A stretch of DNA of 64,000 nucleotides from NCBI GenBank assembly GCA_049510745.1, contig JBEKYR010000002.1:128001-192000 (forward strand). Direction: 5' to 3'. The stretch is from Verrucomicrobiota bacterium. Its GTDB lineage: Bacteria > Verrucomicrobiota > Verrucomicrobiia > Limisphaerales > Palsa-1400. This document shows, piece after piece, positions 7,868 to 49,694 of the stretch. The position numbers were made by a program, and so were the translations under genes. Below the pieces are notes generated by a model. It had not been told where the DNA came from and ran no database searches. It worked only from the letters and a program-made list of their open reading frames with translations. Within the stretch, counting starts at the first letter, position 1. Each line of letters opens with the position of its first letter.

Positions 7868-10021
7868 CTAGTGCGCCAGGCGCGAGGCCATGGCGTAGAT
7901 GATCAAAATGAGCAGGATCACGCCGACGCCGAAAAAGAGGTAGCCAAAGGAGCGGGCGATGGCTTTCCAGCGTTCCCATTCGTCCTTGATGCGCAATTCC
8001 TCCAGCCGCCCGCCGCCCAGCAGACGCTCATACCAGCGCCGCCGCTCGTGCAGCAGTTCGGTCTTGGAGATGCGGCCGGAAAAGATGACGGTGTCCATGG
8101 GAAATTTCTCCAGCCGAAAATGGGTGTTGAAGAAGTGAATCGTAAAGATGAAACCCGCCGCCAAAAGGGCTTCGTCGGAATGAACGATCAGCGCGACGTT
8201 TATCATCCAGCCCGGCATGAAATGCGAAAAGAACTGCGGAAACCACATGACCAGCCCCGACATGCCAATGGCAAAAACGCCCCAGAACACCGCGAAATAA
8301 TCGAACTTTTCCCAGTAGGTCCACCGGTCGAACTGCGGCTTCGGCCCTTTGCCGAAAAACCATTTCTGGTGCGCCACGAAATCCTTCGCGTCCTGCCACG
8401 TCGGGATCATCGAGTCGGGGCCGAACAGCACCTCATTCAGGCGCGTCCATTTGGAGCGCCAGGTGCCGCCGCGGAAGCGGCCGCGCGTCTGCCAGGCCTT
8501 GAGCAGCAGCTTGGCCAGGTGCAGCCCGAAATAGAGAAAGGTGACGAGCGCCCCGAAATGATGGAGGGTGCGGGCCACTTCGGCCCCGCCCAGCACGCCG
8601 AAGATCGCCTTGGCCCAGTCCGTATAGTAGAATTTGAGCGGCATGCCGGTAATGACCAACAGCAGGAAGCTGGTCACGACCAGGAAATGCAGGAATCGTT
8701 CAAAGGGCGGAAAGCGCGTGTACCAATCGTCGCCCTGCTGCGCTTCCACCTTGGCTTCGCGGAAGGTCTTCGAGTCGTGCAGATAGAGGTAGCCGGAGCG
8801 AAACAGCCACAAGAGGGTGTGCGCGCCAAAAAAGGCAAAAACCCCGATCAGCAGCGCGGTCATGGCGACAAACGTCCAATGCAACTGCGGATAATGCTTG
8901 GCGTCCATCGGATCGGCGTGCGGAACGTACTCGGCGAAACTGGCCGTGGCGCCGGGATGACATTTCTGACACGTTCCCACGATGTTGGCCTTGGAAAGAT
9001 GCGAGGCCGGATTGGACGGCGGCAGCACGTCGTGGTGGCCGTGGCAGTCGTAACAGGCGGCCACGTCGGAGGCGACATTCGGCCGGCCCAAAGCCATCGC
9101 CTTGCCATGATAGGTGTCGCGGTAATGGGCCAGGCGGTCCTGGTGACAGCGTCCGCAACGTTCATCGCTGCGCGCCTTGAAGTGGTTGCCGCCGGGGGAC
9201 TCGATTTGATGCGCCGAGTGGCAGTCGGTGCAGACCGGGCCGGACTGGTCGCCTTTGGCCAGTATCTGGCCGTGAATGCTGGCGTTGTAGGTTTTCTCGA
9301 TGCCCAGATGGCAGGCCCCGCAGGTCGCCGCCACGTTGGCGTGATTGACCGACGAACTGCGGTCCACGCTTCGCTTGATGTCGTGAACCCCGTGGCAGTC
9401 ATTGCAGGACGGCGCCAGGATCAACCCCATTTGCAGCAGCGCCCGCCCGTGAATGCTCTCCGAATACTGCGACGCCACTTGCGGAAATTTCATGCGGTAC
9501 TCGGCGGTGATTCCGCTGTTGCTGTGGCATTTGGCGCAGGTCCGCGGCAGGTTGAGTTTGAAGACGGGCGAGTCGGCGTGTTTGACCGGCTGCATCTCGT
9601 GCGAACCGTGGCAATCGACGCACGAGGCGGCCGCCGACGCGCCCATGGCCTTGCTCATGCCGTGAATGCTGCCGGCGTAGAGCTTGGCCTCCGCCTGGTG
9701 GCAGGAGGCGCATTGCGCCGGGGGCAGCCCGCTGGGATGCACCATCTCTTTGATGCTGTCGTGGCAATCGGTGCAGTTGAGTTTGGCGTGGACTGATTTC
9801 GGAAACGTGTTCGTCGGAAACAGCTCCATCGGCACAATCTGTCCCTGAACCTTGCGCGTCGTCGTCGGGTCCGTGTGGCAGTCCAGACAATCCTGGTTGG
9901 ACAGCGGCGCAGCCGTCAGCGGAGCGGCCAGCGACAGCCAGAAAACGAGGGCGAAACTGTAAAGAGCGGACCTTTTACATTCCGCCGTTATGACAGTCGG
10001 TGCATTGATATGCGGGATCAT
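7868..10021 (-). CDS. CbcL-like inner-membrane cytochrome: 11-heme c domain fused to FdnI/HydC-type cytochrome b
   Basis: 11 CxxCH motifs, then TM domain with His ligands (RFLHFL, LHHFG, VHSDEA, TIHFF) and YWEKFDY; nearest in-frame ATG (10021) overlaps the upstream gene, so the start is uncertain. Confidence 0.85.
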   Translation of the reverse strand: MIPHINAPTVITAECKRSALYSFALVFWLSLAAPLTAAPLSNQDCLDCHTDPTTTRKVQGQIVPMELFPTNTFPKSVHAKLNCTDCHDSIKEMVHPSGLPPAQCASCHQAEAKLYAGSIHGMSKAMGASAAASCVDCHGSHEMQPVKHADSPVFKLNLPRTCAKCHSNSGITAEYRMKFPQVASQYSESIHGRALLQMGLILAPSCNDCHGVHDIKRSVDRSSSVNHANVAATCGACHLGIEKTYNASIHGQILAKGDQSGPVCTDCHSAHQIESPGGNHFKARSDERCGRCHQDRLAHYRDTYHGKAMALGRPNVASDVAACYDCHGHHDVLPPSNPASHLSKANIVGTCQKCHPGATASFAEYVPHADPMDAKHYPQLHWTFVAMTALLIGVFAFFGAHTLLWLFRSGYLYLHDSKTFREAKVEAQQGDDWYTRFPPFERFLHFLVVTSFLLLVITGMPLKFYYTDWAKAIFGVLGGAEVARTLHHFGALVTFLYFGLHLAKLLLKAWQTRGRFRGGTWRSKWTRLNEVLFGPDSMIPTWQDAKDFVAHQKWFFGKGPKPQFDRWTYWEKFDYFAVFWGVFAIGMSGLVMWFPQFFSHFMPGWMINVALIVHSDEALLAAGFIFTIHFFNTHFRLEKFPMDTVIFSGRISKTELLHERRRWYERLLGGGRLEELRIKDEWERWKAIARSFGYLFFGVGVILLILIIYAMASRLAH

Positions 10022-11459
10022 ATTCGTCCAACGGATGGGCAAACTTCAGGCCTTGCGGGCTGAGTTGGTTGATCTGCTCGCCGCTGCCTTGGGCCAAAAT
10101 CAAATGGCAGGCGTTGCAGTCGTTGGCTTTTATCGTCCTCTTCCCAACGGTCGAGACATGTTTGCCGTCATGGCATCGGAAACAGCCCGGCCAATCCTTG
10201 TGGCCGATATTGTCCGGGTAGGCCCGCCAATCGGCCTTCATCTCGGGGAAGAAATTATCCCTGTAAATCTGCTGCACGGTGTCGATGGCCGGCCGGATGC
10301 GCGGGTCCTGCGGGTAGTTGTCGGCCAGCGTGGTGGCGATGGTTTGCAGGGCGCTGGTCTCATCCTTGTAAGCGCGGCACAAGACTCCCACCGCGTTGGT
10401 CTTGATGTAGGGCAGGGCGGTGGAGATTTGACCCAGGGACATGGCCAGATTGACGGCGCTTTCCGGCGCCTGGAGCTTGTGGGCCGGGCGATTATGGCAA
10501 TCCATGCAGTCCATCGTTCGCTTGGCAAGCTGGCTGGCGTCATTGGTAAACCCCGCCGCGCGGAACTCCGTCACCACCCCCTGCGGGTCGGTCATGCGCA
10601 CCCACGGGATTTTTTGGCGCGCCTCGTCGGTGGCGATGTATTCAATCTTGTTGGCCACGTTCATGTGCCAATGGATGCCGCCGACCGGCCCGTGCGTGGG
10701 ATCGCCGCCGCCCACTTTGAGCAACAAACGAATGGCGTAAAGCGTGTTGGTCTGGTCCGGCAGATAGTAGGAGAGGGTGCGGTCAAGGTTGCCGACAAAT
10801 TTCTTCGGCCAATGGCATTGCTCGCACGTTTCCTGGGCCGGCCGCAGATTCTTGACAGGCGTGGGAATGGGCGTGGGATATTTGTGGGCCAGGGTCGCAT
10901 ACACCTGGTAGGTGCCGGACAATTTGGAGCGCACATACCACTCGGCGCCCTTGCCGATGTGGCATTCGGCGCAGGCGACCCGCGCGTGCGGGGAATGCCG
11001 GTAGCTTGTCAACTCCGGTTTCATCACCGTGTGGCACGCTTCTCCGCAAAACTCGACCGATTCCGTAAAGTGATACGTGTGGTAACTCCCCATCGCGGTC
11101 AGCAGAAGGAACCCGGCGGTGGCCGGGATGAAAAAGGCCAGCAGGCGCCGGTCATGCGCGCGCGCGAAATCAATGTTGATGTACAAAGACGGGGCGGCGC
11201 CGTTGGCTTTGGCCAACCGGCGGCGCCACCGCCAGGCGCCAAAGAGGAAGATGGCCAATCCCGCCGCCAGAAACGCCGGCGCCACCAGGAAGGTCAGAAT
11301 TCCCACGTACGGGTTCGCCGAATAGACGACCGCATCGAGGAAAAACAGCAGCAGAAACGCAAAAACACTCGAAGCCATCAGCACCAGCCCCGCCAGGGAA
11401 ACCCAGTTGCGAAAGAGCGAGGGCGGGCGAACCGATCCCGTTGGGGCAGGGGTGCTCAT
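9975..11459 (-). CDS. ImcH-like NapC/NirT-family membrane multiheme cytochrome c (7 hemes)
   Basis: Three N-terminal TM helices incl. NPYVGIL; CGEACH (CX3CH) plus 6 CxxCH. Confidence 0.85.
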   Translation of the reverse strand: MSTPAPTGSVRPPSLFRNWVSLAGLVLMASSVFAFLLLFFLDAVVYSANPYVGILTFLVAPAFLAAGLAIFLFGAWRWRRRLAKANGAAPSLYINIDFARAHDRRLLAFFIPATAGFLLLTAMGSYHTYHFTESVEFCGEACHTVMKPELTSYRHSPHARVACAECHIGKGAEWYVRSKLSGTYQVYATLAHKYPTPIPTPVKNLRPAQETCEQCHWPKKFVGNLDRTLSYYLPDQTNTLYAIRLLLKVGGGDPTHGPVGGIHWHMNVANKIEYIATDEARQKIPWVRMTDPQGVVTEFRAAGFTNDASQLAKRTMDCMDCHNRPAHKLQAPESAVNLAMSLGQISTALPYIKTNAVGVLCRAYKDETSALQTIATTLADNYPQDPRIRPAIDTVQQIYRDNFFPEMKADWRAYPDNIGHKDWPGCFRCHDGKHVSTVGKRTIKANDCNACHLILAQGSGEQINQLSPQGLKFAHPLDEYDPAYQCTDCHNGGM

Positions 11460-11530: not shown

Positions 11531-11857
11531 TTATTTCTTGAAGGTTCGGATATAGGCGACAAGCCCCTTGATCTGGTCGTCGGTCAAGCCTTCCGCGGGC
11601 TTCATGAGGGTTTTGTCGTCTTTTTTGAGTCCTTCCTTGATGGCTTTGACGGCGTCGTCGTCTTTCAACGCGTCCTGGACTTTGGGATCCGTGTAATCCT
11701 TTGCGCCCAGTTTCTGGCCCATTTTGGTCTGGCCCTTGCCGTCTGCACCGTGGCACTTGACGCACTCCTTCTCGTAGAGCGCCTTGCCGTCCTCCGCTTG
11801 CGCGGCCCACGCCGCCAGGACGGAGATGACTGCTGCAACTATGATGCTTTTCTTCAT
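11531..11857 (-). CDS. Periplasmic monoheme class I cytochrome c
   Basis: Signal peptide, CVKCH, distal Met (LMKPA), Lys-rich. Confidence 0.9.
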   Translation of the reverse strand: MKKSIIVAAVISVLAAWAAQAEDGKALYEKECVKCHGADGKGQTKMGQKLGAKDYTDPKVQDALKDDDAVKAIKEGLKKDDKTLMKPAEGLTDDQIKGLVAYIRTFKK

Positions 11858-11942: not shown

Positions 11943-13202
11943 TCAAATGCGCGCCTCCGGCGGATTGGGATGGCGCACAGCGCCCGGGACCACGTTCTCG
12001 ATCGTCGGCAGGTCCAGGGCCAAAAAATACTTGACCAGCACCGTCAAAATCACGAAGGGCAGCGCCAGCAGCGCCAGGGAGAGAAGCCAGCCTTCCGAGC
12101 CGGCAAACTCCATCTTGTAGCTCATGAAACCGCGCAGGCTCTTGGAAAAAAGCTGGCCGCCAATCACCACGTTCCAGCGCATCGCCAGCACCCCCATCAG
12201 GATCAGCGCCGCGCAGGAGAAATAAACCCGGCGGCGGTTCAACTCCGCCACCTTCCGGCGGACCAGTTGCATCGATCCCAGCAAGAAGAGCGGCACCAGC
12301 GTGCCCAGGCAGGCCTGCCCGATCAGCAGCGTGTAAAACAACTTGCTCGCCGCCAGCGACCGCAGCACATCGATCCCCTCCTCGGCCGAATAAAGGCGGT
12401 GCAGCCAGTCCAGTCCTTCGATGGTGGCGTCGATCACCAGCGCATAAAACAGAAAGCTCGTCATCAAGTCCAGGCACCGCATGTCGGCCGTGATCCGGCG
12501 CGCCCAGCACAAAAACATGTAAACGAACACGCACAGCGCCATGCCCGACACCACCGCTGAGAGAATGAAAATGATCGGCATGAGCACGTTGCCCCACCAG
12601 GGATTGGCCTTGATCGAGCCGAAAATGAATCCGACATACCCGTGCAACAGAAACGCCGACGGAATGCCGACGACGGAAATGATCCGCCCCATGCGGTCGT
12701 CCAAACGCAGGGCCGGCTCGGAAAGGTCCGTCACGCCCAGGGTGAACGCCCGGTAGATGATGCCCCTCAAGCCGCTCTGGGTGTTGGCCCACTCCACAAA
12801 ATCCCGCCGGTAATCGAACCAGAGTTCCAACAGGAGCACGGCCATCAGGTACCAGGCATAGACAAAACCGAACATGGCCATGGGCGAACTGAAGTGCGGC
12901 GTCATCATGATCTCATAGCAACGCTCGGGATGGCCCAGGTGAAAAAGCAGCGGCAGCGTCGCGCACAGCAAAAACGCGAGCGCTGTCAACAATGCCAGCC
13001 GGTAAACCGGCTCCAGCGCCCTGACTTTGAAGACCCGCACCAGCGAGGCCATTATGAAAGCTCCCGCCACCAATCCGGTGATGTAGGGATAGACGACGAT
13101 CAGCACGCTCCACAGCGGATGCAGCGTCCGTTCGTTGGGATAGACGTAGCCCTCGAATTGCGGCAGCGCGTCCACCACGTTGGTCAAAATGGCGGCGTTC
13201 AT
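11943..13202 (-). CDS. NrfD/PsrC-family quinone-interacting membrane subunit
   Basis: WSVLIVVYPYITGLVAG, HLGHPER, SSPMA motifs; many TM helices; TAATG overlap with upstream Fe-S gene. Confidence 0.88.
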   Translation of the reverse strand: MNAAILTNVVDALPQFEGYVYPNERTLHPLWSVLIVVYPYITGLVAGAFIMASLVRVFKVRALEPVYRLALLTALAFLLCATLPLLFHLGHPERCYEIMMTPHFSSPMAMFGFVYAWYLMAVLLLELWFDYRRDFVEWANTQSGLRGIIYRAFTLGVTDLSEPALRLDDRMGRIISVVGIPSAFLLHGYVGFIFGSIKANPWWGNVLMPIIFILSAVVSGMALCVFVYMFLCWARRITADMRCLDLMTSFLFYALVIDATIEGLDWLHRLYSAEEGIDVLRSLAASKLFYTLLIGQACLGTLVPLFLLGSMQLVRRKVAELNRRRVYFSCAALILMGVLAMRWNVVIGGQLFSKSLRGFMSYKMEFAGSEGWLLSLALLALPFVILTVLVKYFLALDLPTIENVVPGAVRHPNPPEARI

Positions 13203-14008
13203 TATCGAACCTCCTCATCCAGGCCCGCGTAGGCCACGCGCGGTCCGGTGCCCAGATTGCGTTTCAGGCCCTCCACCTTGTTGTTGGAGATGAACCGTTG
13301 CAGCGGGTCGTCCGCCACGGGGTTTTTCAAATCGCCGAATATCCGGGCCTGCGAGGGGCAAATCTCCACGCACGCGGGCTTGAGTCCTTTCGTGATCCGG
13401 TGGTAGCACAGGGTACACTTGTCGGCGGTGTGCGTTTCCGGATTCAGAAACCGGCATCCGTACGGGCAGGCCTGCACGCAGAAACCGCACCCGATGCAAT
13501 AATTCTTGTCCACCAGCACCACGCCGTCCGGGGATTGGAAGGTGGCGCCGACCGGGCAGACCTGCGAGCAGGGCGACTTCTCGCAGAGGTTGCAGAGTTT
13601 GGGGACAAAGAACGATTTAAGAATGTCCTCCTTGGGAACGAGCGACACCGGGAAGCCCTCCTTCCCGCCGTCCGGCGAGTCCACGATGGTTTCGCCGCGG
13701 GTCTCGCCCGATCCCGGCTTGGGCTTGGTAATGACGTAGCGCTCGATCCAGGTGCGGAAATGGGAATCCGGGACGCTGTTCTCCTCCCGGCACGCTTCGA
13801 CGCACAGGCCGCATCCGATGCACCGGTCCACGTCCAGCGCCATCAGCCATTTGTGTTGGAACGGATCGTAGCCGGCGGGGGCGTGCGCGGAAACCAAGCC
13901 GTGCCGCACGGCCGCTTTGCAGGTGCGCCCGGCCGACAGGGTCAGAATGCCTCCGACAATTCCAGCCAGATTCTTCAAAACGCTGCGGCGGGTGATATTC
14001 TCGCTCAT
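13202..14008 (-). CDS. NrfC/DmsB-type 4Fe-4S protein with Tat signal
   Basis: TRRSVLK Tat motif; CIGCGLCVEAC, CNLCEKSPCSQVCP, CIGCGFCVQACP, KCTLC..ACVEICP. Confidence 0.9.
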   Translation of the reverse strand: MSENITRRSVLKNLAGIVGGILTLSAGRTCKAAVRHGLVSAHAPAGYDPFQHKWLMALDVDRCIGCGLCVEACREENSVPDSHFRTWIERYVITKPKPGSGETRGETIVDSPDGGKEGFPVSLVPKEDILKSFFVPKLCNLCEKSPCSQVCPVGATFQSPDGVVLVDKNYCIGCGFCVQACPYGCRFLNPETHTADKCTLCYHRITKGLKPACVEICPSQARIFGDLKNPVADDPLQRFISNNKVEGLKRNLGTGPRVAYAGLDEEVR

Positions 14009-14463
14009 GGAACCTCGTTGGGTTGGTGCGGAACATGGCACTCGGTGCAAACACTTCCGTTGTAATGGTTGTGGATGTTGATTTGGTGGAGCCATTTCGG
14101 CCGCGACGGGCTGGCCTGATGGCACCGCACGCACAAACTCATGTTGAGCTTGGGCAGTTTGTCGGCCGGATTCTCCACGTGCGCCCGGCCGGGGCCGTGG
14201 CAGGTTTCGCAGGACAACCCCTTGTGTTCCCCTTTGGCCAGCTTTTGCGCGTGGTCGGTATGGCATTCCACGCACGCCGCCTTTCCGGCCCAAAAGGGTT
14301 GCCGCGACGCGATCTCCTGCAACGCGGCTCCCCTGTAATGGCCGTATTGCCCAAAGGATAGCGGCGTCAGGAAGTAGCGCGCCGTGAAATAGGCGCACAC
14401 GATCCCGATCGTCAGCAGCACGAGCCGGATGATTTGCGGCGGCATTTTGAACAATCGCAACAT
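14005..14463 (-). CDS. Membrane-anchored tetraheme cytochrome c
   Basis: One N-terminal TM helix; CVECH, CETCH, CVRCH, CTECH. Confidence 0.88.
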   Translation of the reverse strand: MLRLFKMPPQIIRLVLLTIGIVCAYFTARYFLTPLSFGQYGHYRGAALQEIASRQPFWAGKAACVECHTDHAQKLAKGEHKGLSCETCHGPGRAHVENPADKLPKLNMSLCVRCHQASPSRPKWLHQINIHNHYNGSVCTECHVPHQPNEVP

Positions 14464-14570: not shown

Positions 14571-15062
14571 TCATTTAAACGACATTTTTTGGGGAGTTGA
14601 TCCCTCAACCCCGCGCGAAACAGCCTGCCCTTCAAGCAAATCGGCCATTTCGCAAAGGCCCCGGTAATACTCTTCCCGGGGGATTCCCAGCGCCGCCGCG
14701 CCAAAGGCCTCCGCGTCATCGGACGACGCGAACTCCCCATAGTTGACAACAACCAACTGATAGAGCGCCAGGTGCGCCACCCGGTCCATCTCCGTCATGA
14801 AGAGCGGATGGACGTGAATGACAAATCCGTCTTCCGGCCGGCCGCCGTTTGGCTTCGGATAGGCGCACTCTCCCTTCTGGAGCGGGGCGGGGTCAAATAC
14901 GATCTGGCAGGGGTATCGGACACAGGCGCGGTCTTCGAGGATGCGCAATAGTTCGTTCCAGCCAATGCGCGGCCCGTACTTTTCAAAGATCTCGGCGCCC
15001 CTGGCGGCCGCGTGCCCGCTCAAGGATTGCCTGGCATCATCGGCTGTTAGTCTTTTTGACAT
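14571..15062 (-). CDS. Hypothetical protein within the cytochrome operon
   Basis: 163-aa ORF starting 11 bp after the NrfD stop; protein-like composition. Confidence 0.65.
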   Translation of the reverse strand: MSKRLTADDARQSLSGHAAARGAEIFEKYGPRIGWNELLRILEDRACVRYPCQIVFDPAPLQKGECAYPKPNGGRPEDGFVIHVHPLFMTEMDRVAHLALYQLVVVNYGEFASSDDAEAFGAAALGIPREEYYRGLCEMADLLEGQAVSRGVEGSTPQKMSFK

Positions 15063-15073
15063 GGGCGCGGCGG

Positions 15074-17763: not shown

Positions 17764-17764
17764 A

Positions 17765-18409
17765 TCATTCGTGGCTGGCCGGCGCGGCGTCGGCGGCGGT
17801 CATCTCCCTCAACGGATGCGGGCCGGGCGCGGGCTTTCGCGAAGGAAACCGGGGCGAATGCGGGTTGTGGCAGTTCACGCAGTCCTTTCGTTCTATCGGG
17901 CCTTGGCTTCGGTCCCAATACCCGCTGATCCTGCCATGCGCTCCAGCCTCCCAGTCCCGATAGGTCGGCCCGTGACAACTGCCGCACAATTGCGTGCTGT
18001 CGGCGAATTTCAGCTCCCGCCCGTCACGCGGCTGGAGCAGCACGAGATTGGTCTCGTTGTGACAGTTAAAGCAGTTGTTGTTGCGCCCGTGCCGTCCGTG
18101 CCCCATCACGACGTCCGCGTGCTCCGTCGGAACAATGATGACCTGATTGGTGTCCAGCCGCAGCACCGGGGGCTTCTTCTTGTCATGACAAGCGTAGCAG
18201 TCAAAATCCGACAGGTCCGCCCCCGCCCGCGCCAGGTCCGCGTAGGACCGCCGGGTGGTTGACAGGTCAAGAAAGTTTGTGTCCACCAGCGCAATCGCCG
18301 GGCGCCTCCACTGCGTTTCGACCGCGCCGGACAGAAAGGCCAGCGCCAGCGCCGCGAAGGCCGCGGACAGAACCGCCAGGCTGATTCCGGTCTTGGCGTT
18401 GGTTGTCAT
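17765..18409 (-). CDS. Membrane-anchored tetraheme cytochrome c
   Basis: N-terminal hydrophobic helix; CYACH, CFNCH, CGSCH, CVNCH. Confidence 0.87.
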   Translation of the reverse strand: MTTNAKTGISLAVLSAAFAALALAFLSGAVETQWRRPAIALVDTNFLDLSTTRRSYADLARAGADLSDFDCYACHDKKKPPVLRLDTNQVIIVPTEHADVVMGHGRHGRNNNCFNCHNETNLVLLQPRDGRELKFADSTQLCGSCHGPTYRDWEAGAHGRISGYWDRSQGPIERKDCVNCHNPHSPRFPSRKPAPGPHPLREMTAADAAPASHE

Positions 18410-20104: not shown

Positions 20105-20123
20105 ATTGTTCCTGTTCAGTAAC

Positions 20124-21251: not shown

Positions 21252-21272
21252 AACCCCTCAAATCCGTCAATT

Positions 21273-21295
21273 ACTATCTTACGTAAAACGATAGT
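21273..21295. promoter_or_regulatory. Candidate autoregulatory operator of the HigA-ImmA gene
   Basis: ACTATC-TTACGTAAAAC-GATAGT inverted repeat about 20 bp upstream of the start codon. Confidence 0.4.
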
Positions 21296-39533: not shown

Positions 39534-39536
39534 GAC

Positions 39537-41561: not shown

Positions 41562-43108
41562 AAACGTTTCCCCTCCTCACTCTTCTGACTCTGATCCCGC
41601 TGATCGGCGGCGCGGCGACGTTGCTGGCATCCAGTCAATCAAAGCTCGCCCGGCGCGTCGCCTTCCTCACCAGCCTGCTGGCGCTGGCCGTGGCGGCGCT
41701 GCTGTGGGCCGCGTTTGACACCGGCCGCGCCGGCTGGCAATTCGTCGAGCGTTTCGCCTGGGTGCCGTCGCTGGGCATCGATTACCACCTGGGCATCGAT
41801 GGATTGGGGCTTTTGATGGTGCTGCTGTCGGCGTTGCTCGTTCCGTTTGCCATGCTCGCTTCGTGGAACATCGGGCAGAATCCGAAACTTTATTTCGCGC
41901 TGATTCTGTTTTTGGAAGCCGGCTTGTTCGGCACGTTCACTGCGCTGAACTTTTTCCATTGGTTCATCTATTGGGAACTGGGCCTGATTCCGGCGTATTT
42001 CCTGATCAAAATCTGGGGCGGCCCCCGCCGCACGCGGGCGGCGAACCAATTCTTCATTTACACGCTGGCCGGCAGCGTGGCGATGCTCCTGGCGTTCCTG
42101 GCCCTTTACGCCGCGACGGGACTGTTCGACTTCGGACAACTGGCCGAACTGGCCCGCAACGGCGGCCTCGACAACGCGCTGTTCGCCAAGCTGGGCGGTT
42201 CCTTTTTCAAGTCCAGGGAAACGCTGGCCACGGTCATTTTTCTGGGCGTGTTCCTCGGGTTTGCGGTGAAGGCGCCGCTCATGCCTTTCCATACCTGGCT
42301 GCCCTCCGCTTACGCCGAAGCGCCCACCGGCACGGCCATGCTGCTGACGGGTGCGATGTCGAAAATGGGCGTCTATGGATTCCTGCGCATTTTGCTGCCG
42401 CTGTTTCCGGCGCAAATGCGCGCCCTGCAAACGCCTCTGCTCTGTCTGGCGGTGGCCACGATTGTTTTTTCGGCGGCGGCGGCCCTGGCCCAGCGCGATT
42501 TGAAACGGATGGTGGCTTATTCCTCGATCAATCACGTCGGTTACTGCCTCCTGGGAATTTTTGCCGCGGTGCAGATCACCGGCACGACCGCTGCCTGGAC
42601 CACTGAAAAGGCCGCCGCCCTCAACGGCGTCATGCTGCAAATGTTCAACCACGGGTTGACGGCCGCGGCGCTGTTTTATTTTGTCGGCCTGATCGAGCAG
42701 CGCAGTGGCGGCCTGCGCGGCCTGGACGATTTTGGCGGCCTGCGCAAAGCAGCGCCGGTTTTTTGCGGGTTGATGGGCATCACTTTGTTCGCCTCGCTCG
42801 GTCTGCCCGGCCTGAATGGATTTGTCAGCGAGTTTCTGATCTTCAAAGGTTCCCTGCCGCTGGTGGGGTGGGCGGCGGCGGTCTCGACCCTCGGTTTGCT
42901 GATCACGGCGATTTTTCTGCTCGCCATTTTGCAGCGCGTGTTCAGCGGGCCTTTGCAGAATCGCTGGGCCGGCTGGAAGGACCTGACGACCGGTGAACGG
43001 CTCACGGTGGCGCCGGTCATCGCGCTGATGCTTTTGCTCGGAATATGCCCGCAAATTCTTATCAGCGTGGCCAACCCGGCCGCTCTGGCGATCTTGAAAC
43101 TCTTTTGA
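41558..43108 (+). CDS. nuoM: Complex I subunit M, copy 1
   Basis: PFHTWLP, KMGVYG, AYSSINH, GLPGLNGFVSE. Confidence 0.93.
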   Translation: MKTFPLLTLLTLIPLIGGAATLLASSQSKLARRVAFLTSLLALAVAALLWAAFDTGRAGWQFVERFAWVPSLGIDYHLGIDGLGLLMVLLSALLVPFAMLASWNIGQNPKLYFALILFLEAGLFGTFTALNFFHWFIYWELGLIPAYFLIKIWGGPRRTRAANQFFIYTLAGSVAMLLAFLALYAATGLFDFGQLAELARNGGLDNALFAKLGGSFFKSRETLATVIFLGVFLGFAVKAPLMPFHTWLPSAYAEAPTGTAMLLTGAMSKMGVYGFLRILLPLFPAQMRALQTPLLCLAVATIVFSAAAALAQRDLKRMVAYSSINHVGYCLLGIFAAVQITGTTAAWTTEKAAALNGVMLQMFNHGLTAAALFYFVGLIEQRSGGLRGLDDFGGLRKAAPVFCGLMGITLFASLGLPGLNGFVSEFLIFKGSLPLVGWAAAVSTLGLLITAIFLLAILQRVFSGPLQNRWAGWKDLTTGERLTVAPVIALMLLLGICPQILISVANPAALAILKLF

Positions 43109-43111
43109 GTT

Positions 43112-44599
43112 ATGCTGGCCTGGACCATTTACATTTCATTTTTGGGCGCGGCGGCGCTGGCGCTTCTGCCGCCGGAGAGCCGGCGCGCGGCGCGGATCAC
43201 GGCGCTGCTGACGGCTTTGGCGGGGCTGGCCGTCGCGCTGGGCGGCGCGGCGCAGTACGAGCGCCAGACCCCGTCCGGCGCGCTGGTGGACCTGGCCAAT
43301 GTTTCGTGGATTGCGGACCTGGGCATCCGCTATCACCTGGCGGCGGACGGCGTGAGCATCACGCTGGTGTTGCTGACCGGCATTGCGGCGGTCGCGGGCG
43401 TGTTGTTTTCGTGGAACATCGAGCGCCGCGTCCGGGAGTTTTTCGCGCTCTATCTGGCGCTCATCGGCGGCGTCTATGGAGTGTTTCTGAGCTTCGATCT
43501 GTTTCTCCTGTTCGTCTTTTACGAAATCGCCATCATCCCGAAATACTTCCTCATTGCCGTCTGGGGATCGACCCGGCGCGAATACGGCGCGATGAAACTG
43601 GCGCTCTATTCGTTGGTGGGCAGCGCGATGGTGTTGATCGGCTTGATCGCCGCCTACGTCGTCTCCGGGGCGCAGACGTTCGATTTGATCGAACTGGCGA
43701 AATTTCCGTTCCCGGTCGCGTTTCAAAACTGGGCTTTCCTGCTGGTGTTTGTTGGCTTTGCGATCCTGGCTGGTCTTTGGCCGTTCCACACTTGGGCGCC
43801 GACCGGCCACGTCGCCGCGCCCACCGCCGCCTCCATGTTGCTGGCCGGGGTGGTGATGAAACTGGGCGCTTACGGCGCGTTGCGCGTGGCCATGACGCTT
43901 TTCCCGGACGGACTGCGCACCTGGCAAAATGAGATCGCCCTGCTGGCTGTCATCGGCATCGTCTATGGCGCCACGGTCGCGCTGGTGCAACGGGACATCA
44001 AATTCGTCATCGGCTATTCCAGCGTCAGCCACATGGGCTTTGTCTTGCTCGGCCTGATGACCCTTTCTCAAATCGGCCTGAGCGGCGCCGTGCTGCAAAT
44101 GTTTTCCCACGGCATTATCGCCGGACTTCTCTTTGCGGTGGTGGGGCGGATGATTTACGACCGCACCCATACCCGTGAACTGAGCGAACTTCAGCCGATG
44201 AATCTCAGCGTGCTGGCGCCCTTTGCGGCGGTCACCTTTGTGGTCGCGGGCGCCGCGTCCATGGGTCTGCCCGGTTTCAGCGGGTTTATCGCTGAATTGC
44301 AGGTGCTCACGGGCGCCTGGCAGGTCTTTCCGCGCCTGACTATTCTCGCCGGCGTCGGAATTCTTGTCGGCATCGCCTTCATCGTGCGCGTCTGGATCAA
44401 GGCTTTTTTTGCGGAGAACGACACGCAAGCCGCCGCCATCCAGATCGAACCCATTTCCATTCCCGAACGGGCTGGCGCGTATGTGCTGCTGGCAACCACC
44501 GTCCTCATCGGCCTTTGGCCCGGTTTGCTCCTGGATTTGATTACGCCGACGCTCCAATCGCCCCTGTTCCAACCGCTCTGGAAAGGAGGCCCGCCATGA
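43112..44599 (+). CDS. nuoM: Complex I subunit M, copy 2
   Basis: PFHTWAP, KLGAYG, YSSVSHMG, GLPGFSGFIAE. Confidence 0.92.
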   Translation: MLAWTIYISFLGAAALALLPPESRRAARITALLTALAGLAVALGGAAQYERQTPSGALVDLANVSWIADLGIRYHLAADGVSITLVLLTGIAAVAGVLFSWNIERRVREFFALYLALIGGVYGVFLSFDLFLLFVFYEIAIIPKYFLIAVWGSTRREYGAMKLALYSLVGSAMVLIGLIAAYVVSGAQTFDLIELAKFPFPVAFQNWAFLLVFVGFAILAGLWPFHTWAPTGHVAAPTAASMLLAGVVMKLGAYGALRVAMTLFPDGLRTWQNEIALLAVIGIVYGATVALVQRDIKFVIGYSSVSHMGFVLLGLMTLSQIGLSGAVLQMFSHGIIAGLLFAVVGRMIYDRTHTRELSELQPMNLSVLAPFAAVTFVVAGAASMGLPGFSGFIAELQVLTGAWQVFPRLTILAGVGILVGIAFIVRVWIKAFFAENDTQAAAIQIEPISIPERAGAYVLLATTVLIGLWPGLLLDLITPTLQSPLFQPLWKGGPP

Positions 44600-46083
44600 A
44601 CCCGTCTTTGGACTGGATGATTCCGCTGATTCCCGAAGAAATCATCATCGGGTTCGCGCTGGCAGTGCTGGCGCTGGATTTTGCCATCGTGCGGCGGAAA
44701 AATCTGGCCGTCCGCGCGGCAGTGATTGGCACGACGGCTTGTTTGGGTTGCGTGGCGGCCATGATCTGGATCGCGCGCGGGCCGGATGCCGGGGCGGCCG
44801 AAATGCTGGCGCTGACTCCGCTCACCCAGTTTTTAAAATTGGTGCTGCTCGCCTTGACCCTGGTGGTCGCGCTGCTGTCGTTTGGCGCGCGTTTTTCGCG
44901 GCACGTCGGCGAGTATTTTGCGCTGCTGCTCATGGCCACCGCCGGTTTGATGCTGCTCATCAGTTCGGAAAATCTTTTGATGATTTTTATCGCGCTCGAA
45001 CTGCTCAGCGTCCCGCTTTATGTCCTGACGGCCTTTAACAAGAGCAGTCCGGCGTCGGCCGAGGCGGCCCTGAAATACTTTCTCTTCGGCAGCGTGGCGG
45101 CGGCGTTCACGCTCTTTGGCATCAGCCTCCTCTATGGGCTGGCCGGCGATCTGCAACTCGCATCGCTGGCCGAAAAACTGAGAACTCAGCCGGTCGAGCC
45201 GGTTTGTTATGCCGCCCTGGTCATGACTCTGACCGGCTTCGCCTTCAAAGTGGCGGCGGCGCCGTTTCATTTCTGGGCGCCGGATGTCTATCAGGGCGCG
45301 CCGGCGCCGATCGCCTGTTTCATCGCTTCCGGCTCAAAGGTGGCCAGCTTCTTTGTCCTGGCACGAATCATCGTCGAGGGCTTTGGCCCGTGGCACGGCA
45401 GCGCCGTCTGGGAAGGGTTTCGGGCGGGATGGATGCCGCTGCTGGCGGTGTTGGCGGTGTTCTCGATGGTCGCGGGCAACATGGCCGCGCTCGTGCAGAC
45501 CAGCGTGAAACGGTTGCTCGCCTATTCGGCCATCGCCCACGCGGGCTATGCGTTGCTGGCCTTTTTTGGCAACGCGCAGCAGATGCTGCCGGCGCTCTTC
45601 TTTTATGTCATCACTTACGCGCTGACCGTGCTGGGAGCGTTTGCGGTGGTGGCGGCGGTTGAAAACAGCGGCAGCCGCGATCGGCTGGCCGATTGGGCCG
45701 GGCTGGGCCGGCGCGCGCCTCTGCTCTCCGCGTGCATGTTTGTCTTCATGCTCTCGCTGGCGGGCATTCCGCCGCTCTCCGGTTTCTTCGGCAAGTTCTA
45801 TCTCTTCACGGCGGCGGCGGCGGGCCAGCCTCATTTGGGCATGCTGTGGCTGGTCATCGTGGCGGTGGGCGCCAGCGCGGTTTCGCTCTATTACTATCTG
45901 CAAGTGCTCAAGCAGATTTACGCCGCCGAACCTCCCGCCGGCTCCAAACCCTTTTGCCCGCCCTATGCCGCGCTGCTGCCCATCGCGCTGCTGGCCGGCC
46001 TCGTCATCGCCTTTGGTTGCGCGCCCGGCTGGTTGCTGGGACAACTTTCCATGGTCCTGAACTCTTCCGCTTTCCGATTATGA
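44596..46083 (+). CDS. nuoN: Complex I subunit N
   Basis: EAALKYF, PFHFWAPDVYQGAP, KRLLAYSAIAHAGY, GIPPLSGFFGK. Confidence 0.95.
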   Translation: MNPSLDWMIPLIPEEIIIGFALAVLALDFAIVRRKNLAVRAAVIGTTACLGCVAAMIWIARGPDAGAAEMLALTPLTQFLKLVLLALTLVVALLSFGARFSRHVGEYFALLLMATAGLMLLISSENLLMIFIALELLSVPLYVLTAFNKSSPASAEAALKYFLFGSVAAAFTLFGISLLYGLAGDLQLASLAEKLRTQPVEPVCYAALVMTLTGFAFKVAAAPFHFWAPDVYQGAPAPIACFIASGSKVASFFVLARIIVEGFGPWHGSAVWEGFRAGWMPLLAVLAVFSMVAGNMAALVQTSVKRLLAYSAIAHAGYALLAFFGNAQQMLPALFFYVITYALTVLGAFAVVAAVENSGSRDRLADWAGLGRRAPLLSACMFVFMLSLAGIPPLSGFFGKFYLFTAAAAGQPHLGMLWLVIVAVGASAVSLYYYLQVLKQIYAAEPPAGSKPFCPPYAALLPIALLAGLVIAFGCAPGWLLGQLSMVLNSSAFRL

Positions 46084-49000
46084 ATGCATCTCCCAAAATC
46101 CAAAGCCCGCCCGCCGCTCCCTTCGTCACGCTGGACGGGAACGAGGCCGCCGCTTCCGTCGCTTACCGCCTGACCGAAACGATCGCCATCTACCCGATTA
46201 CGCCCTCCTCGCCCATGGCCGAATGGTGCGACCAATGGTCGGCGGCGGGCCGGCCTAATTTATACGGCACTGTGCCCCGCCTGGTCGAAATGCAGTCGGA
46301 AGCCGGGGCCGCCGGCGCCCTGCACGGGATGGTGCAAGTCGGCTCGTTGAGCACAACCTTCACCGCCTCGCAGGGCCTGCTGCTGATGATCCCCAGCATG
46401 TACAAAATCGCCGGCGAACTTCTTCCCTTCTGCATGCACGTGACCGCCCGCACCCTGGCCACGCACGCCCTCTCCATTTTTGGCGATCATTCCGATGTCA
46501 TGGCGTGCCGGCAAACCGGCTTTGCCCTGCTTTCCTCCGGTTCGGTGCAGGAGGCGCAGGATTTGGCCTGCATCGGCCATGCCGCCACGCTCGAATCGCG
46601 GGTGCCGTTCCTGCATTTCTTTGACGGTTTCCGCACCTCGCACGAAGTGGCCAAGATTCGCTTGCTGACCGACGACCAATTGCGCCAGATGATGGACCAG
46701 TACGACCTGTGCCTCCAGGCCTTCCGTCATCACGGCCTGTCTCCGGACCGGCCCTGCATTCGCGGCACGGCCCAGAACCCCGACGTTTTCTTTCAGGCGC
46801 GGGAAGCGTGCAATCCTTTTTATGACCGCACGCCCGGCATCGTCCAGGAGGCCATGAACCGCTTCGCCGGGATCACCGGGCGCCAATACCGGTTGTTTGA
46901 TTACGCCGGCCATCCCCAGGCCGAGTGCGTGCTGGTCATCATGGGTTCGGGCGGCGAAACCGCGCAACAAACGGCCGAGTGGCTCCATCAGGGCGGCGAA
47001 AAAACCGGAGTGTTGAGAGTGCGCCTCTATCGGCCATTCTCGATTGAAGCCTTTGTCGGCGCGCTGCCTCCGACCACGCGCCGCCTGGCTGTGCTCGACC
47101 GCACCAAGGAACCGGGCGCGGTCGGGGAACCGCTTTATGTCGATACCGTGGCGGCCTTGCGCGAAGCTTGCGACAGAGGGCTGGCGTCCTTTGACGCCGA
47201 ACCGGCCGTGGTGGGCGGGCGTTACGGCCTCTCTTCCAAGGAATTCACGCCGGCGATGGTCAAATCTATTTTCGATGAACTCCGGCAAAAGCGCGCGCCG
47301 AAGAATCATTTTACGACCGGCATTGTCGATGATGTCACCCACACGTCGCTGCCCTTTGACGCGGAGTTTGACATCGAGCCGCCAGAGGTGGTGCGGGCGG
47401 TCTTTTTCGGACTGGGCGCGGACGGCACCATCGGCGCCAACAAGAACTCCATCAAGATCATCGGCGAGGAAACCGACCTCCATGCGCAGGGTTATTTCGT
47501 CTATGACTCCAAAAAAGCCGGCGCCGTCACCATCTCGCATCTGCGCTTCGGGCCGCATCCCATCCATTCCCCCTATCTGCTCAAGGAGGCGGACTTTGTC
47601 GCCTGCCATCAATGGCCGTTTTTGGACCGTTACAACGTGCTCGATTACGCGAAGGAGGGCGCGACGCTGCTGCTCAATTCGCCGCACGGCCCGGAGTCTG
47701 TCTGGAACCATTTTTCCGTCGAGATTCAGCGGGAAATCATCGCCAAGAAACTCAAATGCTACGTGATCGACGCCTACCCGGTGGCCAAGGCCGCCGGCAT
47801 GGGCGGGCGCATCAATACGATCATGCAGACGTGCTTCTTCGCCATTTCCAACGTGCTCTCGCGCGCCGAGGCGATTGAGCAGATCAAGAAGGCGATCCGC
47901 AAAACTTACGCCCGCAAAGGCGAGGCGGTCGTGGCCCAAAACTTCGCGGCGGTGGACCAAACCCTGGCCGCCTTGCACGAGGTCGTCATTCCCGAAGCCG
48001 TTTCCGCCGAACGCCATCAGGCGCCGATGGTTCCGGCGGAGGCGCCTGATTTTGTGCGGCGGATCACCGCGCTCATGCTGGCCAACAAGGGCGATTTGCT
48101 GCCCGTCAGCGCGTTTCCGGTGGATGGCACGTGGCCTTCCGGGACCACGCGCTGGGAAAAACGGGCCATTGCGCTGGAAATTCCCGAATGGGACCCGGCC
48201 ATTTGCATTCAGTGCAACAAATGCGTCCTGGTTTGCCCGCACGCCGCCATCCGGGCCAAGTTTTATCCCGCCGGCCTGGCCGCCAACGCCCCGGCCCATT
48301 TCAAATCCACCGCCTTTCGCTCGCAGGAATGGAAGGACTCCAAATACACGCTGCAAGTGGCGCCGGAAGATTGCACCGGCTGCACGCTGTGCGTGGCGGT
48401 TTGCCCGGTGAAATCAAAAACCGACCCGAAACAAAGAGCGATCAACATGCGGCCGATGCCCCCGTTGCGCGACCAGGAGGTTGTCAACTATGAATTCTTC
48501 CTCAAGCTGCCTTCCCCCGACCGCGCGCGCCTGGCGCTGGACGTCAAAGGGACGCAATTCCGGGAGCCGCTCTTCGAGTATTCGGGGGCGTGTTCGGGCT
48601 GCGGCGAAACGCCCTATCTCAAACTGCTCACCCAGATGTCGGGCGACCGGCTGATCGTGGCCAACGCCACCGGCTGCTCCTCCATTTACGGCGGCAACCT
48701 GCCGACGACTCCTTACACCGTCAACAGCGCCCATCGCGGCCCGGCTTGGTCCAATTCGCTCTTCGAGGACAACGCCGAGTATGGTTTTGGCCACCGGGTG
48801 GCGCTGGACAAACAAACTGAATTCGCCCGCGAACTGGCGCGGAAACTGGCGCCGCAACTGGGCGGGGAACTGGTCGATGAATTGCTCGGCGCCAAACAAG
48901 ATGACGAAGCGCAGATCTTCGCGCAACGCGAGCGGGTGTGCGAATTGCGCCGGCGCCTGCAAGGCTTGGACGCGCCGGAAGCCGCCGTCCTGCACGGCCT

Positions 49001-49694
49001 GGCGGACGCGCTGGTCAGCAAATCGGTCTGGATTGTGGGCGGCGACGGCTGGGCCTATGACATCGGTTTCGGCGGCCTGGACCATGTCATCGCCATGAAC
49101 GCGAAGGTCAACATTCTTGTGCTTGACACTGAGGTTTATTCCAACACCGGCGGGCAACAGTCCAAGGCGACGCCCCGGGGGGCGGCCGCCCGGTTCGCCG
49201 TTTCCGGCAAACGCATGGGCCGCAAGGACCTTGGGCTGATGGCCATGACTTACGGCACGGCCTACGTGGCCCAGATCGCGCTCGGCTCGAAGGACTCGCA
49301 AACGGTGAAAGCCTTCGAGGAAGCCGAGTCGTATCCCGGCACCTCGCTCATCATCGCCTACAGTCCGTGCATCGAGCATGGATACGCGCTTGGGCTGAGC
49401 CTGGAGCAGCAGAAACTGGCGGTCGATACCGGCTTCTGGCCGCTCTACCGGTTCGATCCGCGGCGCCTGGCGGCGGGCCAGCCGGGATTGAAACTGGATT
49501 CCGCGGCGCCCAAGATTCCGCTGGAAAAATTCTGGGCGACGGAACGCCGTTTCCAAGCCATCGCCAGCCAGGACCCGGCGCAGAGCAAAGCGATACTTGA
49601 CGCAGCGCAGGACGAGGTCCTGGGCCGGTTCGCCCTTTACGAAAGGATGTCCACCCAGCCGGTGGCGCCGGCCAAGCTTGTGCAGGCGAAGTGA
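46080..49694 (+). CDS. nifJ: Pyruvate:ferredoxin/flavodoxin oxidoreductase (single-chain, NifJ type)
   Basis: DGNEA, YPITP, FFDGFRTSHE, CIQCNKCVLVCP, CTGCTLCVAVCP, GACSGCGE, GGDGWAYDIG; ATGA overlap with nuoN. Confidence 0.96.
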   Translation: MNASPKIQSPPAAPFVTLDGNEAAASVAYRLTETIAIYPITPSSPMAEWCDQWSAAGRPNLYGTVPRLVEMQSEAGAAGALHGMVQVGSLSTTFTASQGLLLMIPSMYKIAGELLPFCMHVTARTLATHALSIFGDHSDVMACRQTGFALLSSGSVQEAQDLACIGHAATLESRVPFLHFFDGFRTSHEVAKIRLLTDDQLRQMMDQYDLCLQAFRHHGLSPDRPCIRGTAQNPDVFFQAREACNPFYDRTPGIVQEAMNRFAGITGRQYRLFDYAGHPQAECVLVIMGSGGETAQQTAEWLHQGGEKTGVLRVRLYRPFSIEAFVGALPPTTRRLAVLDRTKEPGAVGEPLYVDTVAALREACDRGLASFDAEPAVVGGRYGLSSKEFTPAMVKSIFDELRQKRAPKNHFTTGIVDDVTHTSLPFDAEFDIEPPEVVRAVFFGLGADGTIGANKNSIKIIGEETDLHAQGYFVYDSKKAGAVTISHLRFGPHPIHSPYLLKEADFVACHQWPFLDRYNVLDYAKEGATLLLNSPHGPESVWNHFSVEIQREIIAKKLKCYVIDAYPVAKAAGMGGRINTIMQTCFFAISNVLSRAEAIEQIKKAIRKTYARKGEAVVAQNFAAVDQTLAALHEVVIPEAVSAERHQAPMVPAEAPDFVRRITALMLANKGDLLPVSAFPVDGTWPSGTTRWEKRAIALEIPEWDPAICIQCNKCVLVCPHAAIRAKFYPAGLAANAPAHFKSTAFRSQEWKDSKYTLQVAPEDCTGCTLCVAVCPVKSKTDPKQRAINMRPMPPLRDQEVVNYEFFLKLPSPDRARLALDVKGTQFREPLFEYSGACSGCGETPYLKLLTQMSGDRLIVANATGCSSIYGGNLPTTPYTVNSAHRGPAWSNSLFEDNAEYGFGHRVALDKQTEFARELARKLAPQLGGELVDELLGAKQDDEAQIFAQRERVCELRRRLQGLDAPEAAVLHGLADALVSKSVWIVGGDGWAYDIGFGGLDHVIAMNAKVNILVLDTEVYSNTGGQQSKATPRGAAARFAVSGKRMGRKDLGLMAMTYGTAYVAQIALGSKDSQTVKAFEEAESYPGTSLIIAYSPCIEHGYALGLSLEQQKLAVDTGFWPLYRFDPRRLAAGQPGLKLDSAAPKIPLEKFWATERRFQAIASQDPAQSKAILDAAQDEVLGRFALYERMSTQPVAPAKLVQAK

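Follow-up and report, generated by a model that had tools for sequence, protein, structure and literature searches.

In peat bogs, the amount of CO2 relative to methane exceeds what the known electron acceptors explain, and the leading idea for this excess is that uncultured Acidobacteriota and Verrucomicrobiota respire on humic or particulate organic matter. Here we analyse a stretch of 64,000 nucleotides, referred to below as the window, from the genome of a verrucomicrobium of the order Limisphaerales (GenBank assembly GCA_049510745.1, contig JBEKYR010000002.1, positions 128,001 to 192,000 of the forward strand), in which genes for an outer-membrane electron conduit and several putative quinol-oxidising modules face an operon that encodes a complex I lacking NuoE, NuoF and NuoG together with pyruvate:ferredoxin oxidoreductase (PFOR). 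The core of such conduits has been described before. He 2017 (PMC5615132) described a verrucomicrobial cluster of a porin and multiheme cytochromes, the core is also in print in He 2019, and Fiorito et al., in a 2026 preprint (10.64898/2026.05.27.727921), presented the same core as the "EET4" of Limisphaerales, with MtrA-like and OcwA-like models, and reported it to be transcribed in situ in peat, at depth.

The window resembles these published clusters in having a large barrel (26 strands here, against the published minimum of 20), an adjoining periplasmic cytochrome whose eight heme sites are conserved, and adjacent genes for extracellular multiheme cytochromes, here with nine hemes, all in Verrucomicrobiota of peat or humic waters. 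In contrast to them, the core lies here within about 40 kb that also hold four quinol modules, a copy of hemA and a divergent operon for the complex I and PFOR. A word search of the main texts of He 2017 (PMC5615132) and of the 2026 preprint (10.64898/2026.05.27.727921), figures and supplements aside, returned no mention of hemA, ImcH, CbcL, complex I or PFOR beside the cluster, and the preprint scanned only five genes on each side of the extracellular cytochromes. Our literature search likewise found no description of a conduit linked to hemA and quinol modules, of PFOR inside an operon of this type of complex I, or of both arms facing each other. Thus, the remark of the first-pass annotation that it knew of no description of the combination as one locus has to be narrowed: the porin-cytochrome core is already published, and it is the link of the conduit to the proton pump and PFOR that is apparently undescribed so far.

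The two arms diverge from a gap of 288 bp (33606-33893) on contig C2 of a 5.6-Mb genome that is assembled in 85 contigs and is 94% complete. Gene identities were taken from Pfam and NCBIfam scans of the window proteins, and all the genes named by the first-pass annotation were found where it had placed them. The plus arm carries a FeoA-domain gene, then nuoA, B, C, D, I, H, J, K, L, M, M and N, and finally the PFOR gene. The minus arm begins, in the direction of transcription, with hemA, followed by genes for a nine-heme cytochrome of 785 residues, a DUF7088 protein, a nine-heme cytochrome of 531 residues, an eight-heme cytochrome of 286 residues and a barrel of 708 residues; it continues with a P-type ATPase, a low-GC island, a monoheme cytochrome c, a second NrfD module, a protein of 163 residues, a first NrfD module, another monoheme cytochrome c, and the ImcH-like and CbcL-like proteins. 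The earlier count of 54 heme motifs is exact, comprising 52 CxxCH, one CX3CH and one CX4CH. Half of the multiheme frames of the 5.6-Mb genome (7 of 14, counted from stop to stop, with at least 80 residues and at least three CxxCH) lie within a stretch of 25 kb. We lean, by a narrow measure, towards the view that the two arms are conserved modules that act as one anaerobic respiratory chain with outward electron flow.

At the outer membrane, the comparison is with MtrCAB of Shewanella. The 708-residue protein (24201..26327, minus strand) reaches the cut-off of no Pfam or NCBIfam family, and its AlphaFold model, with a mean predicted local distance difference test (pLDDT) score of 75.8, folds into a barrel of 26 strands, the number also found in MtrB (PMC7198977). 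Its best Foldseek match is MtrB itself (6R2Q chain B; E value 2.3e-16, template-modelling (TM) scores 0.63/0.68, 12% identity), and the next matches are 22-strand TonB-dependent transporters with TM scores of about 0.4. The neighbouring 286-residue cytochrome (26348..27208, minus strand), which has seven CxxCH and one CX4CH, matches MtrA (6R2Q chain A, E value 2.2e-23) and falls below the cut-offs of the MtrA/DmsE-family decaheme models (TIGR03508, 151 against 192; NF041028, 167 against 325), with eight heme sites. In an alignment of 42 sequences, all eight heme sites and Cys36 are invariant. The invariant cysteine follows an "IS" lipobox-like motif, and the protein also has a conserved C-terminal LRF end; the sequence suggests a lipoprotein, unlike MtrA.

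Prediction of the barrel and the eight-heme cytochrome as a complex gave an ipSAE score of 0.87, with 0.00 for the best control, and three runs agreed in at least 65% of contacts with a partner pLDDT of at least 71, a mark reached by 116 of 157 solved complexes and by 2 of 215 mismatched pairs. The models contain 440-479 contacts in an every-second-residue pattern along the strands, with the cytochrome lying against inward-facing residues of successive strands, and would put the cytochrome inside the barrel, although a like complex has been solved and the score may echo that likeness. By fold, homology and predicted complex, the pair is MtrAB-like. It shares with MtrCAB (6R2Q, PMC7198977) a barrel modelled with 26 strands and predicted to surround a multiheme cytochrome, with MtrB as the best fold match and MtrA as a sequence homologue, but it has 8 hemes where MtrA has 10, a lipoprotein cysteine, and a surface partner that is OcwA-like instead of MtrC-like.

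This partner is the 531-residue cytochrome (27284..28879, minus strand), which carries a signal peptide as well as 9 CxxCH. Among solved structures, 6I5B is its closest relative, matched over several stretches with an E value of 2.9e-19; for this entry code, the top literature listing is the paper on OcwA, the nonaheme surface reductase of Thermincola. By this likeness, the 531-residue protein is likely an outer-surface reductase. The 785-residue protein (30007..32364, minus strand) also has 9 CxxCH; its N-terminus is signal-like, and a region towards its C-terminus is free of hemes. It shares 26% identity with the 531-residue protein and matches 6I5B weakly (E value 1.4e-5). Both had been annotated as secreted nine-heme cytochromes. 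The signal peptides are there, and it is from them that the word secreted derives; an OcwA-like character holds for the shorter protein, and the match of the longer one is weak.

For the inner membrane, the comparison is with Geobacter, in which ImcH, CbcL and CbcBA serve different acceptor potentials, according to preprints; homologues of ImcH and CbcL in the phylum were already counted in 2018 (PMC6295460). The ImcH-like protein of the window (494 residues; 9975..11459, minus strand) has a NapC/NirT region (PF03264, E value 2.4e-10), helices at residues 22-40, 54-72 and 106-124, a CX3CH at residue 138 after the third helix and six CxxCH. These are all the features published for ImcH, namely three N-terminal helices with an adjoining CX3CH, six CxxCH, about 495-519 residues and a NapC/NirT-like region (Zhong and Shi 2018, PMC6295460), so the earlier label holds as one assigned by features. 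The CbcL/MtoC-like protein (7868..10021, minus strand) is a fusion of an 11-heme domain, with its 11 CxxCH at residues 45-351, and a cytochrome-b membrane domain. Its match to PF01292 stands exactly at the cut-off (30.1 bits), and those to formate dehydrogenase gamma models are far under theirs; crude hydropathy gives five helices after the heme domain, against the six-helix, HydC/FdnI-like dihaem b domain of the family, and the number of CxxCH is within the family range of 3-23. Judged from these sequence features, membership in the CbcL/MtrH/MtoC family is plausible, not firm. Thus, as in Geobacter sulfurreducens with its ImcH, CbcL and Cbc systems, there would be several alternative inner-membrane quinol oxidases, including a protein with ImcH-like features and a fusion of multiheme c and b cytochromes, but here the modules are adjacent to each other and clustered with an outer-membrane conduit, and CbcL of Geobacter has 9 hemes where the CbcL-like protein of the window has 11.

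The other two modules are of the NrfD type. Module 1 (11943..14463, minus strand) consists of a 4-heme cytochrome with its four CxxCH in one frame, an iron-sulfur protein with a twin-arginine translocation (TAT) signal (Fer4_11, E value 2.3e-25) and an NrfD membrane subunit (E value 5.9e-39) with nine hydrophobic helices by crude hydropathy. Module 2 (15074..18409, minus strand) has tight gene junctions and encodes a membrane-anchored 4-heme cytochrome, a TAT-signal iron-sulfur protein and a DsrP-like NrfD subunit (NrfD, E value 8.4e-37). The latter scores 407 bits with the DsrP model NF045798, whose cut-off is 350, and its iron-sulfur partner scores 170 with the DsrO-like model, below the cut-off of 200. 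Given that the window has no DsrM- or DsrK-like gene, that the cytochrome has 4 hemes and that the iron-sulfur partner is under the DsrO cut-off, module 2 does not belong to DsrMKJOP; by sequence, it is a quinone module of the NrfCD or DsrOP type and not a Dsr complex. The long frame of its NrfD subunit (15074-16810, minus strand) contains, at residues 417-500, a cyclic-nucleotide-binding domain (cNMP_binding, E value 1.6e-18) inserted in a cytoplasmic loop. This architecture is present at full length in six relatives (G011, G014, G016, G017, G008 and G027) and at several further loci, and the match in G006 covers the first 244 of 578 residues. Its presence suggests direct regulation of one branch. 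Two class-I monoheme cytochromes c, putative periplasmic carriers, accompany the modules: copy a (11534..11857, minus strand), with a signal peptide and one CxxCH, and copy b (18546..18875, minus strand; PF13442, E value 3.3e-9), likewise with a signal peptide and one CxxCH.

The other arm encodes the complex I. A complex I core that lacks the NADH module and is fed by a low-potential carrier is known from cyanobacterial NDH-1 and from the Nuo of Campylobacter, which receives electrons from PFOR via flavodoxin, and the 2M type of complex I was reportedly described by Chadwick et al. in 2018. In this type, there is a second NuoM, and NuoL is lengthened by an insertion of about 26 residues in its C-terminal amphipathic helix (PMC9040806, PMC6606698). 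A ratio of five protons per two electrons is a further, biochemical criterion for the type. The operon of the window (nuoABCDIHJKLMMN; 34212..46083, plus strand) has a Pfam match for each subunit. NuoD abuts NuoI at the level of the genes, leaving no space for nuoE, F or G; because nuoD runs directly into nuoI, these three are absent from the operon. The two adjacent nuoM products, 33% identical to each other, match TIGR01972 (NDH_I_M) with 484.6 and 449.5 bits against a cut-off of 263.8, and NuoL has an insertion of 26 residues near its C-terminus relative to the canonical NuoL of the same genome, with the helix assigned from alignment position only. By both sequence criteria, this complex I is of the 2M type, as had been supposed, and it stands beside PFOR. 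Elsewhere, the genome encodes a canonical complex I with NuoF (contig C15).

All junctions of the plus arm are tight, with overlaps of 1-11 bases or spacings of 3-16 bases, and the start of the PFOR gene (46080..49694, plus strand), the last of the operon, overlaps the stop of nuoN by 4 bases. The PFOR is of the NifJ type (TIGR02176, 1715.8 bits with a cut-off at 911, covering positions 1-1166 of 1167) and is a single-chain enzyme with POR_N, POR, EKR, Fer4 and TPP domains. Like the published 2M complexes, the complex of the window has a second NuoM, a NuoL lengthened by about 26 residues and no NuoE or NuoF. In contrast to them, it is found in a heterotrophic verrucomicrobium, its operon ends in PFOR and an electron-export cluster stands opposite, while the published proposal is one of reverse flow in nitrite and manganese oxidisers. 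The difference from cyanobacterial NDH-1 and Campylobacter Nuo is that here the PFOR gene lies within the nuo operon. In Nitrospira and Manganitrophus, the role proposed for 2M complexes lacking NuoE and NuoF is the transfer of electrons from quinol to ferredoxin, to supply PFOR and 2-oxoglutarate:ferredoxin oxidoreductase (PMC6606698, PMC9040806).

A second PFOR, 60% identical to the copy of the operon, is encoded on contig C33, and the genome contains a third gene resembling 2-oxoacid oxidoreductases. The neighbourhood of the second PFOR (locus L126, C33:25001-45000) includes an ADP-forming acetyl-CoA synthetase-like gene and a molybdopterin oxidoreductase or formate-dehydrogenase-like gene, and the PFOR also adjoins a group-4 hydrogenase-like membrane complex with HypB, whose row of genes includes a PIN-domain gene. 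Each PFOR copy would thus have as its neighbour a membrane complex that may oxidise ferredoxin, respiratory in one case and fermentative in the other.

An important question is whether the two arms truly lie side by side, since the first-pass annotation had named a chimeric assembly between hemA and feoA as a possible flaw. The assembly is not chimeric at this point: the junction is found in relatives and is bridged without any difference by single contigs of independent sequencing runs (X2 and X6 over 33501-34304, X3 over 33501-34083), those of X2 and X6 reaching from hemA through the gap and feoA to the start of nuoA. According to their records, these runs come from metagenomes of peat or wetland. 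The divergent intergenic region itself (33606..33893) measures 288 bp, and 287-289 bp in five relatives. An alignment of seven sequences shows in it the conserved block AACTACAC, a stretch that reads GACATTTATTG in five of six close sequences and AACATTTATTG in G017, and another block that reads CCAAAAAATG in most rows and CCAAAATATG in G017. We found conserved blocks only: no convincing palindrome for a CRP/FNR or Fur box is kept across relatives in the divergent region.

The genes on the two sides of the gap are those for HemA and for the FeoA-domain protein. HemA, a glutamyl-tRNA reductase encoded by the first gene of the cytochrome arm (32520..33605, minus strand; TIGR01035, 350.2 bits against a cut-off of 209.55), is the second copy of the genome; the other copy, on contig C16, is 44% identical. 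The FeoA-domain protein (33894..34196, plus strand; 100 residues; PF04023, E value 8.3e-10) has two N-terminal cysteines and one CxxC, with C22, C28, C76 and C79 invariant in seven sequences, and its gene stays with PFOR and hemA in G012 and G017, in which nuo is elsewhere. The genome holds a 74%-identical copy of it on contig C32. We also considered that the FeoA-like protein could be a ferredoxin-docking subunit of the NdhS type. The idea is unsupported: the AlphaFold model is poor (pLDDT 49.5), neither G021 nor G003 has the gene in its 2M-PFOR operon, and where nuo has moved, the gene keeps with hemA and PFOR.

The distribution of the two arms in related genomes was studied by searching 40 relatives with the porin, PFOR and the second NuoM; the family of the organism is represented by 25 genomes, including this one (G000), and the other families of the order by 16. 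Twenty genomes have a strong porin ortholog, and flanking sequences were fetched from 19 of these (all but G023, with a contig of 2.6 kb) and, around the 2M operon or PFOR, from 10 genomes; all 43 window proteins were placed on these flanks by tblastn, and a PFOR of at least 69% identity was counted as the window type. In 13 of the 25 family genomes (G000, G001, G002, G003, G005, G006, G007, G008, G011, G014, G016, G021 and G023), PFOR follows nuoN, in G011 after a gap of 2.4 kb. Twelve family genomes have both the porin ortholog and the window-type PFOR, and in nine of these (G000, G001, G002, G006, G010, G011, G014, G016 and G017) the two are on the same contig within about 25 kb. For the remaining three, linkage is probable in G008, which has a contig break inside nuo, the porin of G023 is on the 2.6-kb contig already mentioned, and in G007 the parts are on separate contigs. 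The linkage that the first-pass annotation had made its test is thus borne out in most genomes that hold both arms, and each arm is also found alone.

The linked genomes are not all arranged alike. In G006, a CbcL gene and a cytochrome c gene lie between nuoA and feoA; in G010, PFOR is beside hemA, and nuo lies beyond CbcL at the far end; and in G017, feoA and a broken PFOR are beside hemA, with the nuo operon on another contig. On contig C2 of G017 (1308610-1312178, loci L012-L013), the PFOR gene is in three reading-frame pieces and hemA and the eight-heme gene are each in two, which may reflect frameshift errors of the assembly or gene decay. Beyond these genomes, 51 further loci were found with the porin, in metagenome-assembled genomes of Limisphaerales and Verrucomicrobiota, several of which have isolate names containing "bog", "palsa" or "SPRUCE". 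The eight-heme gene adjoins the porin in 49 of the 51, and the 531-residue nine-heme gene is present in 43. Upstream of the porin, counted in the 34 loci with at least 9 kb on that side, hemA is present in 28, nuoA in 6 and PFOR in 1; downstream, where 35 loci extend for at least 5 kb, 16 contain an ImcH-like gene. In one locus (L069), PFOR lies next to both the conduit and hemA. Of 300 genomes sampled from the phylum, eight have a nuoN of the 2M type, none of them followed directly by PFOR; one of the eight has a convergent PFOR 1 kb away, and one of the eight has a porin-like and an eight-heme gene 4.6 kb from nuoM-nuoN.

The layout, the gene identities and the operon structure are observed, and the fit of barrel and cytochrome is predicted. 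On this basis, we propose the following chain. PFOR would oxidise pyruvate and reduce a ferredoxin encoded elsewhere, from which the NuoEFG-less complex I, judging by its anatomy, would pass electrons to menaquinone. By textbook potentials, the drop from ferredoxin to menaquinone is about 350 mV, and that from NADH to menaquinone about 250 mV; a fourth antiporter-like subunit would suit ferredoxin as the donor better, because the energy drop is larger than from NADH. By likeness to Geobacter, menaquinol would then give up its electrons, on the outward side of the inner membrane, to several alternative enzymes, namely the ImcH-like protein, the CbcL-like protein and the two modules of 4-heme cytochrome, iron-sulfur protein and NrfD, probably at different acceptor potentials or under different signals. 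The monoheme cytochromes c would ferry electrons across the periplasm; the MtrA-like eight-heme lipoprotein, threaded in the 26-strand barrel according to fold and complex models, would move them through the outer membrane; and the OcwA-like nine-heme surface cytochromes would hand them on to Fe(III) or to humic or particulate organic matter. With a dedicated copy of hemA in first place, the cytochrome arm would increase the supply of heme once the genes with their 54 hemes switch on. The outward direction of this flow is one that we infer.

Several observations weigh against such a chain. The window has no stand-alone ferredoxin or flavodoxin gene, which leaves the carrier between PFOR and complex I missing and contradicts the earlier statement that every step is co-located. 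The island and the P-type ATPase (18936..24169, minus strand) split the minus arm, which therefore cannot be one transcript. The success of the complex prediction may reflect likeness to the solved MtrAB; the complex I may also serve aerobic respiration, as heme-copper oxidases are encoded in the genome; and because the relatives are kin, their common layout may be due to inheritance rather than selection. The published proposal for 2M complexes, moreover, is a reverse run from quinol to ferredoxin (PMC6606698, PMC9040806). In an alternative reading, the arms are two independent modules that have merely been neighbours since an ancestor of the family, with the complex I feeding a general quinone pool that includes the oxidases and the conduit drawing on any donor. 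In its favour, no porin ortholog was found in G003 and G021 (81 and 90% complete), which have the whole 2M-PFOR operon, or in G005 (89%), which has the nuoM-nuoN-PFOR stretch; G012 has PFOR and feoA facing hemA without the conduit; and G007, with its separate contigs, falls on the same side. In the other families of the order, the porin ortholog occurs in 9 of the 16 genomes, and neither nuo nor PFOR is in the fetched flanks of any of the nine, in keeping with the low upstream counts of nuoA and PFOR given above. However, the linkage has outlasted several rearrangements (G006, G010 and G017), the two arms have in common a conserved divergent promoter region, and the association recurs, weakly, in a different family (G088 and G340) and in L069. 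We thus hold mere descent as neighbours to be unlikely, while giving it a serious hearing.

The same genes could also run inward, with electrons from Fe(II), reduced humics or a cathode entering by the conduit and reaching menaquinone via the CbcL/MtoC-like protein or NrfD, the 2M complex driving them on to ferredoxin at the expense of the proton motive force and PFOR acting as pyruvate synthase. This is the direction proposed for Nitrospira and Manganitrophus; homologues of CbcL/MtoC occur in Fe(II) oxidisers as well as in reducers (PMC6295460), heme-copper oxidases could build the motive force, and the third 2-oxoacid oxidoreductase-like gene would fit as well. Nevertheless, no RuBisCO was found in the 94%-complete genome, itself a thin test for autotrophy, ImcH homologues had been reported only from Fe(III) reducers (PMC6295460), and related peat genomes were reconstructed as PFOR-using heterotrophs in the 2026 preprint (10.64898/2026.05.27.727921), so we regard inward flow as rather improbable. 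Finally, the multihemes might form a periplasmic or surface reductase for nitrite, hydroxylamine, sulfite, tetrathionate or a metal oxyanion, with the barrel pair serving that reaction. The nine-heme proteins weakly match families of the nitrite-reductase type (Cytochrom_C552, cytochrome c554), and the NrfD modules resemble subunits of NrfCD, DsrOP and Ttr. OcwA, too, reduces some soluble nitrogen compounds in vitro. Against this, the Pfam and NCBIfam scans found in the locus no catalytic subunit of any known reductase for a soluble acceptor, and the only solved counterpart of a 26-strand MtrB-like sheath with an MtrA homologue is a trans-outer-membrane electron conduit (PMC7198977); a soluble acceptor seems to us very improbable.

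The interruption of the minus arm is a local event. The ATPase (22328-24169; TIGR01525, 479 bits) is of the heavy-metal type, lacks an N-terminal metal-binding domain and is encoded 31 bases downstream of the porin gene. The island (about 18936-22327) has a GC content of 0.48, against about 0.61, and contains a HigA/M78-like gene, one gene without a named family and a 10-bp tandem repeat of 13.9 copies (22101-22239). ATPase and island are absent from the corresponding place in all seven relatives compared, in which the porin is followed by the monoheme cytochrome, and this absence marks them as an insertion in the present genome. No tRNA gene that could mark an integration was found in the window.

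Other genes of the neighbourhood can be mentioned briefly. The DUF7088 protein (28930..29853, minus strand; PF23357, E value 5.2e-13) is membrane-anchored by one N-terminal hydrophobic helix, and most related loci keep its gene inside the cluster, frequently on the opposite strand. Between the NrfD modules, a conserved cytoplasmic protein of 163 residues (14571..15062, minus strand) belongs to no family and is kept in relatives; its Atlas neighbours are hypothetical proteins, mostly of Verrucomicrobiota, and its fold likeness to zinc peptidase-like proteins (TM about 0.5) is too weak for naming. After the CbcL-like gene, with gaps of 19 and 36 bases, come two secreted-looking proteins without a family, of 148 (7402-7848, minus strand) and 674 residues (5341-7365, minus strand), which are not beside the cluster in relatives. 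A protein with a PocR sensor and an AraC-type domain (633-1559, plus strand), near the cytochrome cluster, is a candidate regulator of it; such a gene is also near conduit genes in two more distant genomes (G007 contig C157, that is, locus L033, and L119). At 1.4 kb downstream of PFOR, a GNAT-like acetyltransferase is fused to a cyclic-nucleotide-binding domain (51117-52736, plus strand), the second such domain of the neighbourhood.

A further idea concerns the missing carrier. PFOR might be a dedicated input module that replaces NuoEFG, its own two-cluster ferredoxin domain passing electrons directly to NuoI/NuoB without a soluble carrier, which would make the whole a pyruvate:menaquinone oxidoreductase that pumps one extra proton. 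The 4-base overlap of nuoN and PFOR, which is kept in relatives, the operon-specific PFOR paralogue and the lack of a ferredoxin gene in the locus are consistent with this arrangement. The PFOR of the operon shows no special insertion for docking, however: comparison with the second copy shows no internal indel of four or more residues and one gap of 11 residues at the C-terminal end. We regard direct docking as rather improbable. If it were true, docking together with the facing conduit would constitute a self-contained "pyruvate-to-particle" respiratory unit.

Published work on these bacteria covers the outer-membrane conduit and leaves open the inner-membrane and cytoplasmic steps and the donors. 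The presence of PFOR inside the operon provides a genomic context for the partners of NuoEFG-less 2M complexes, which until now had been inferred from nitrite oxidisers. For one family of Limisphaerales, the locus described here is a testable candidate for the steps left open, with several quinol oxidases, an extra pump in a complex I of the ferredoxin type, and pyruvate as the donor.

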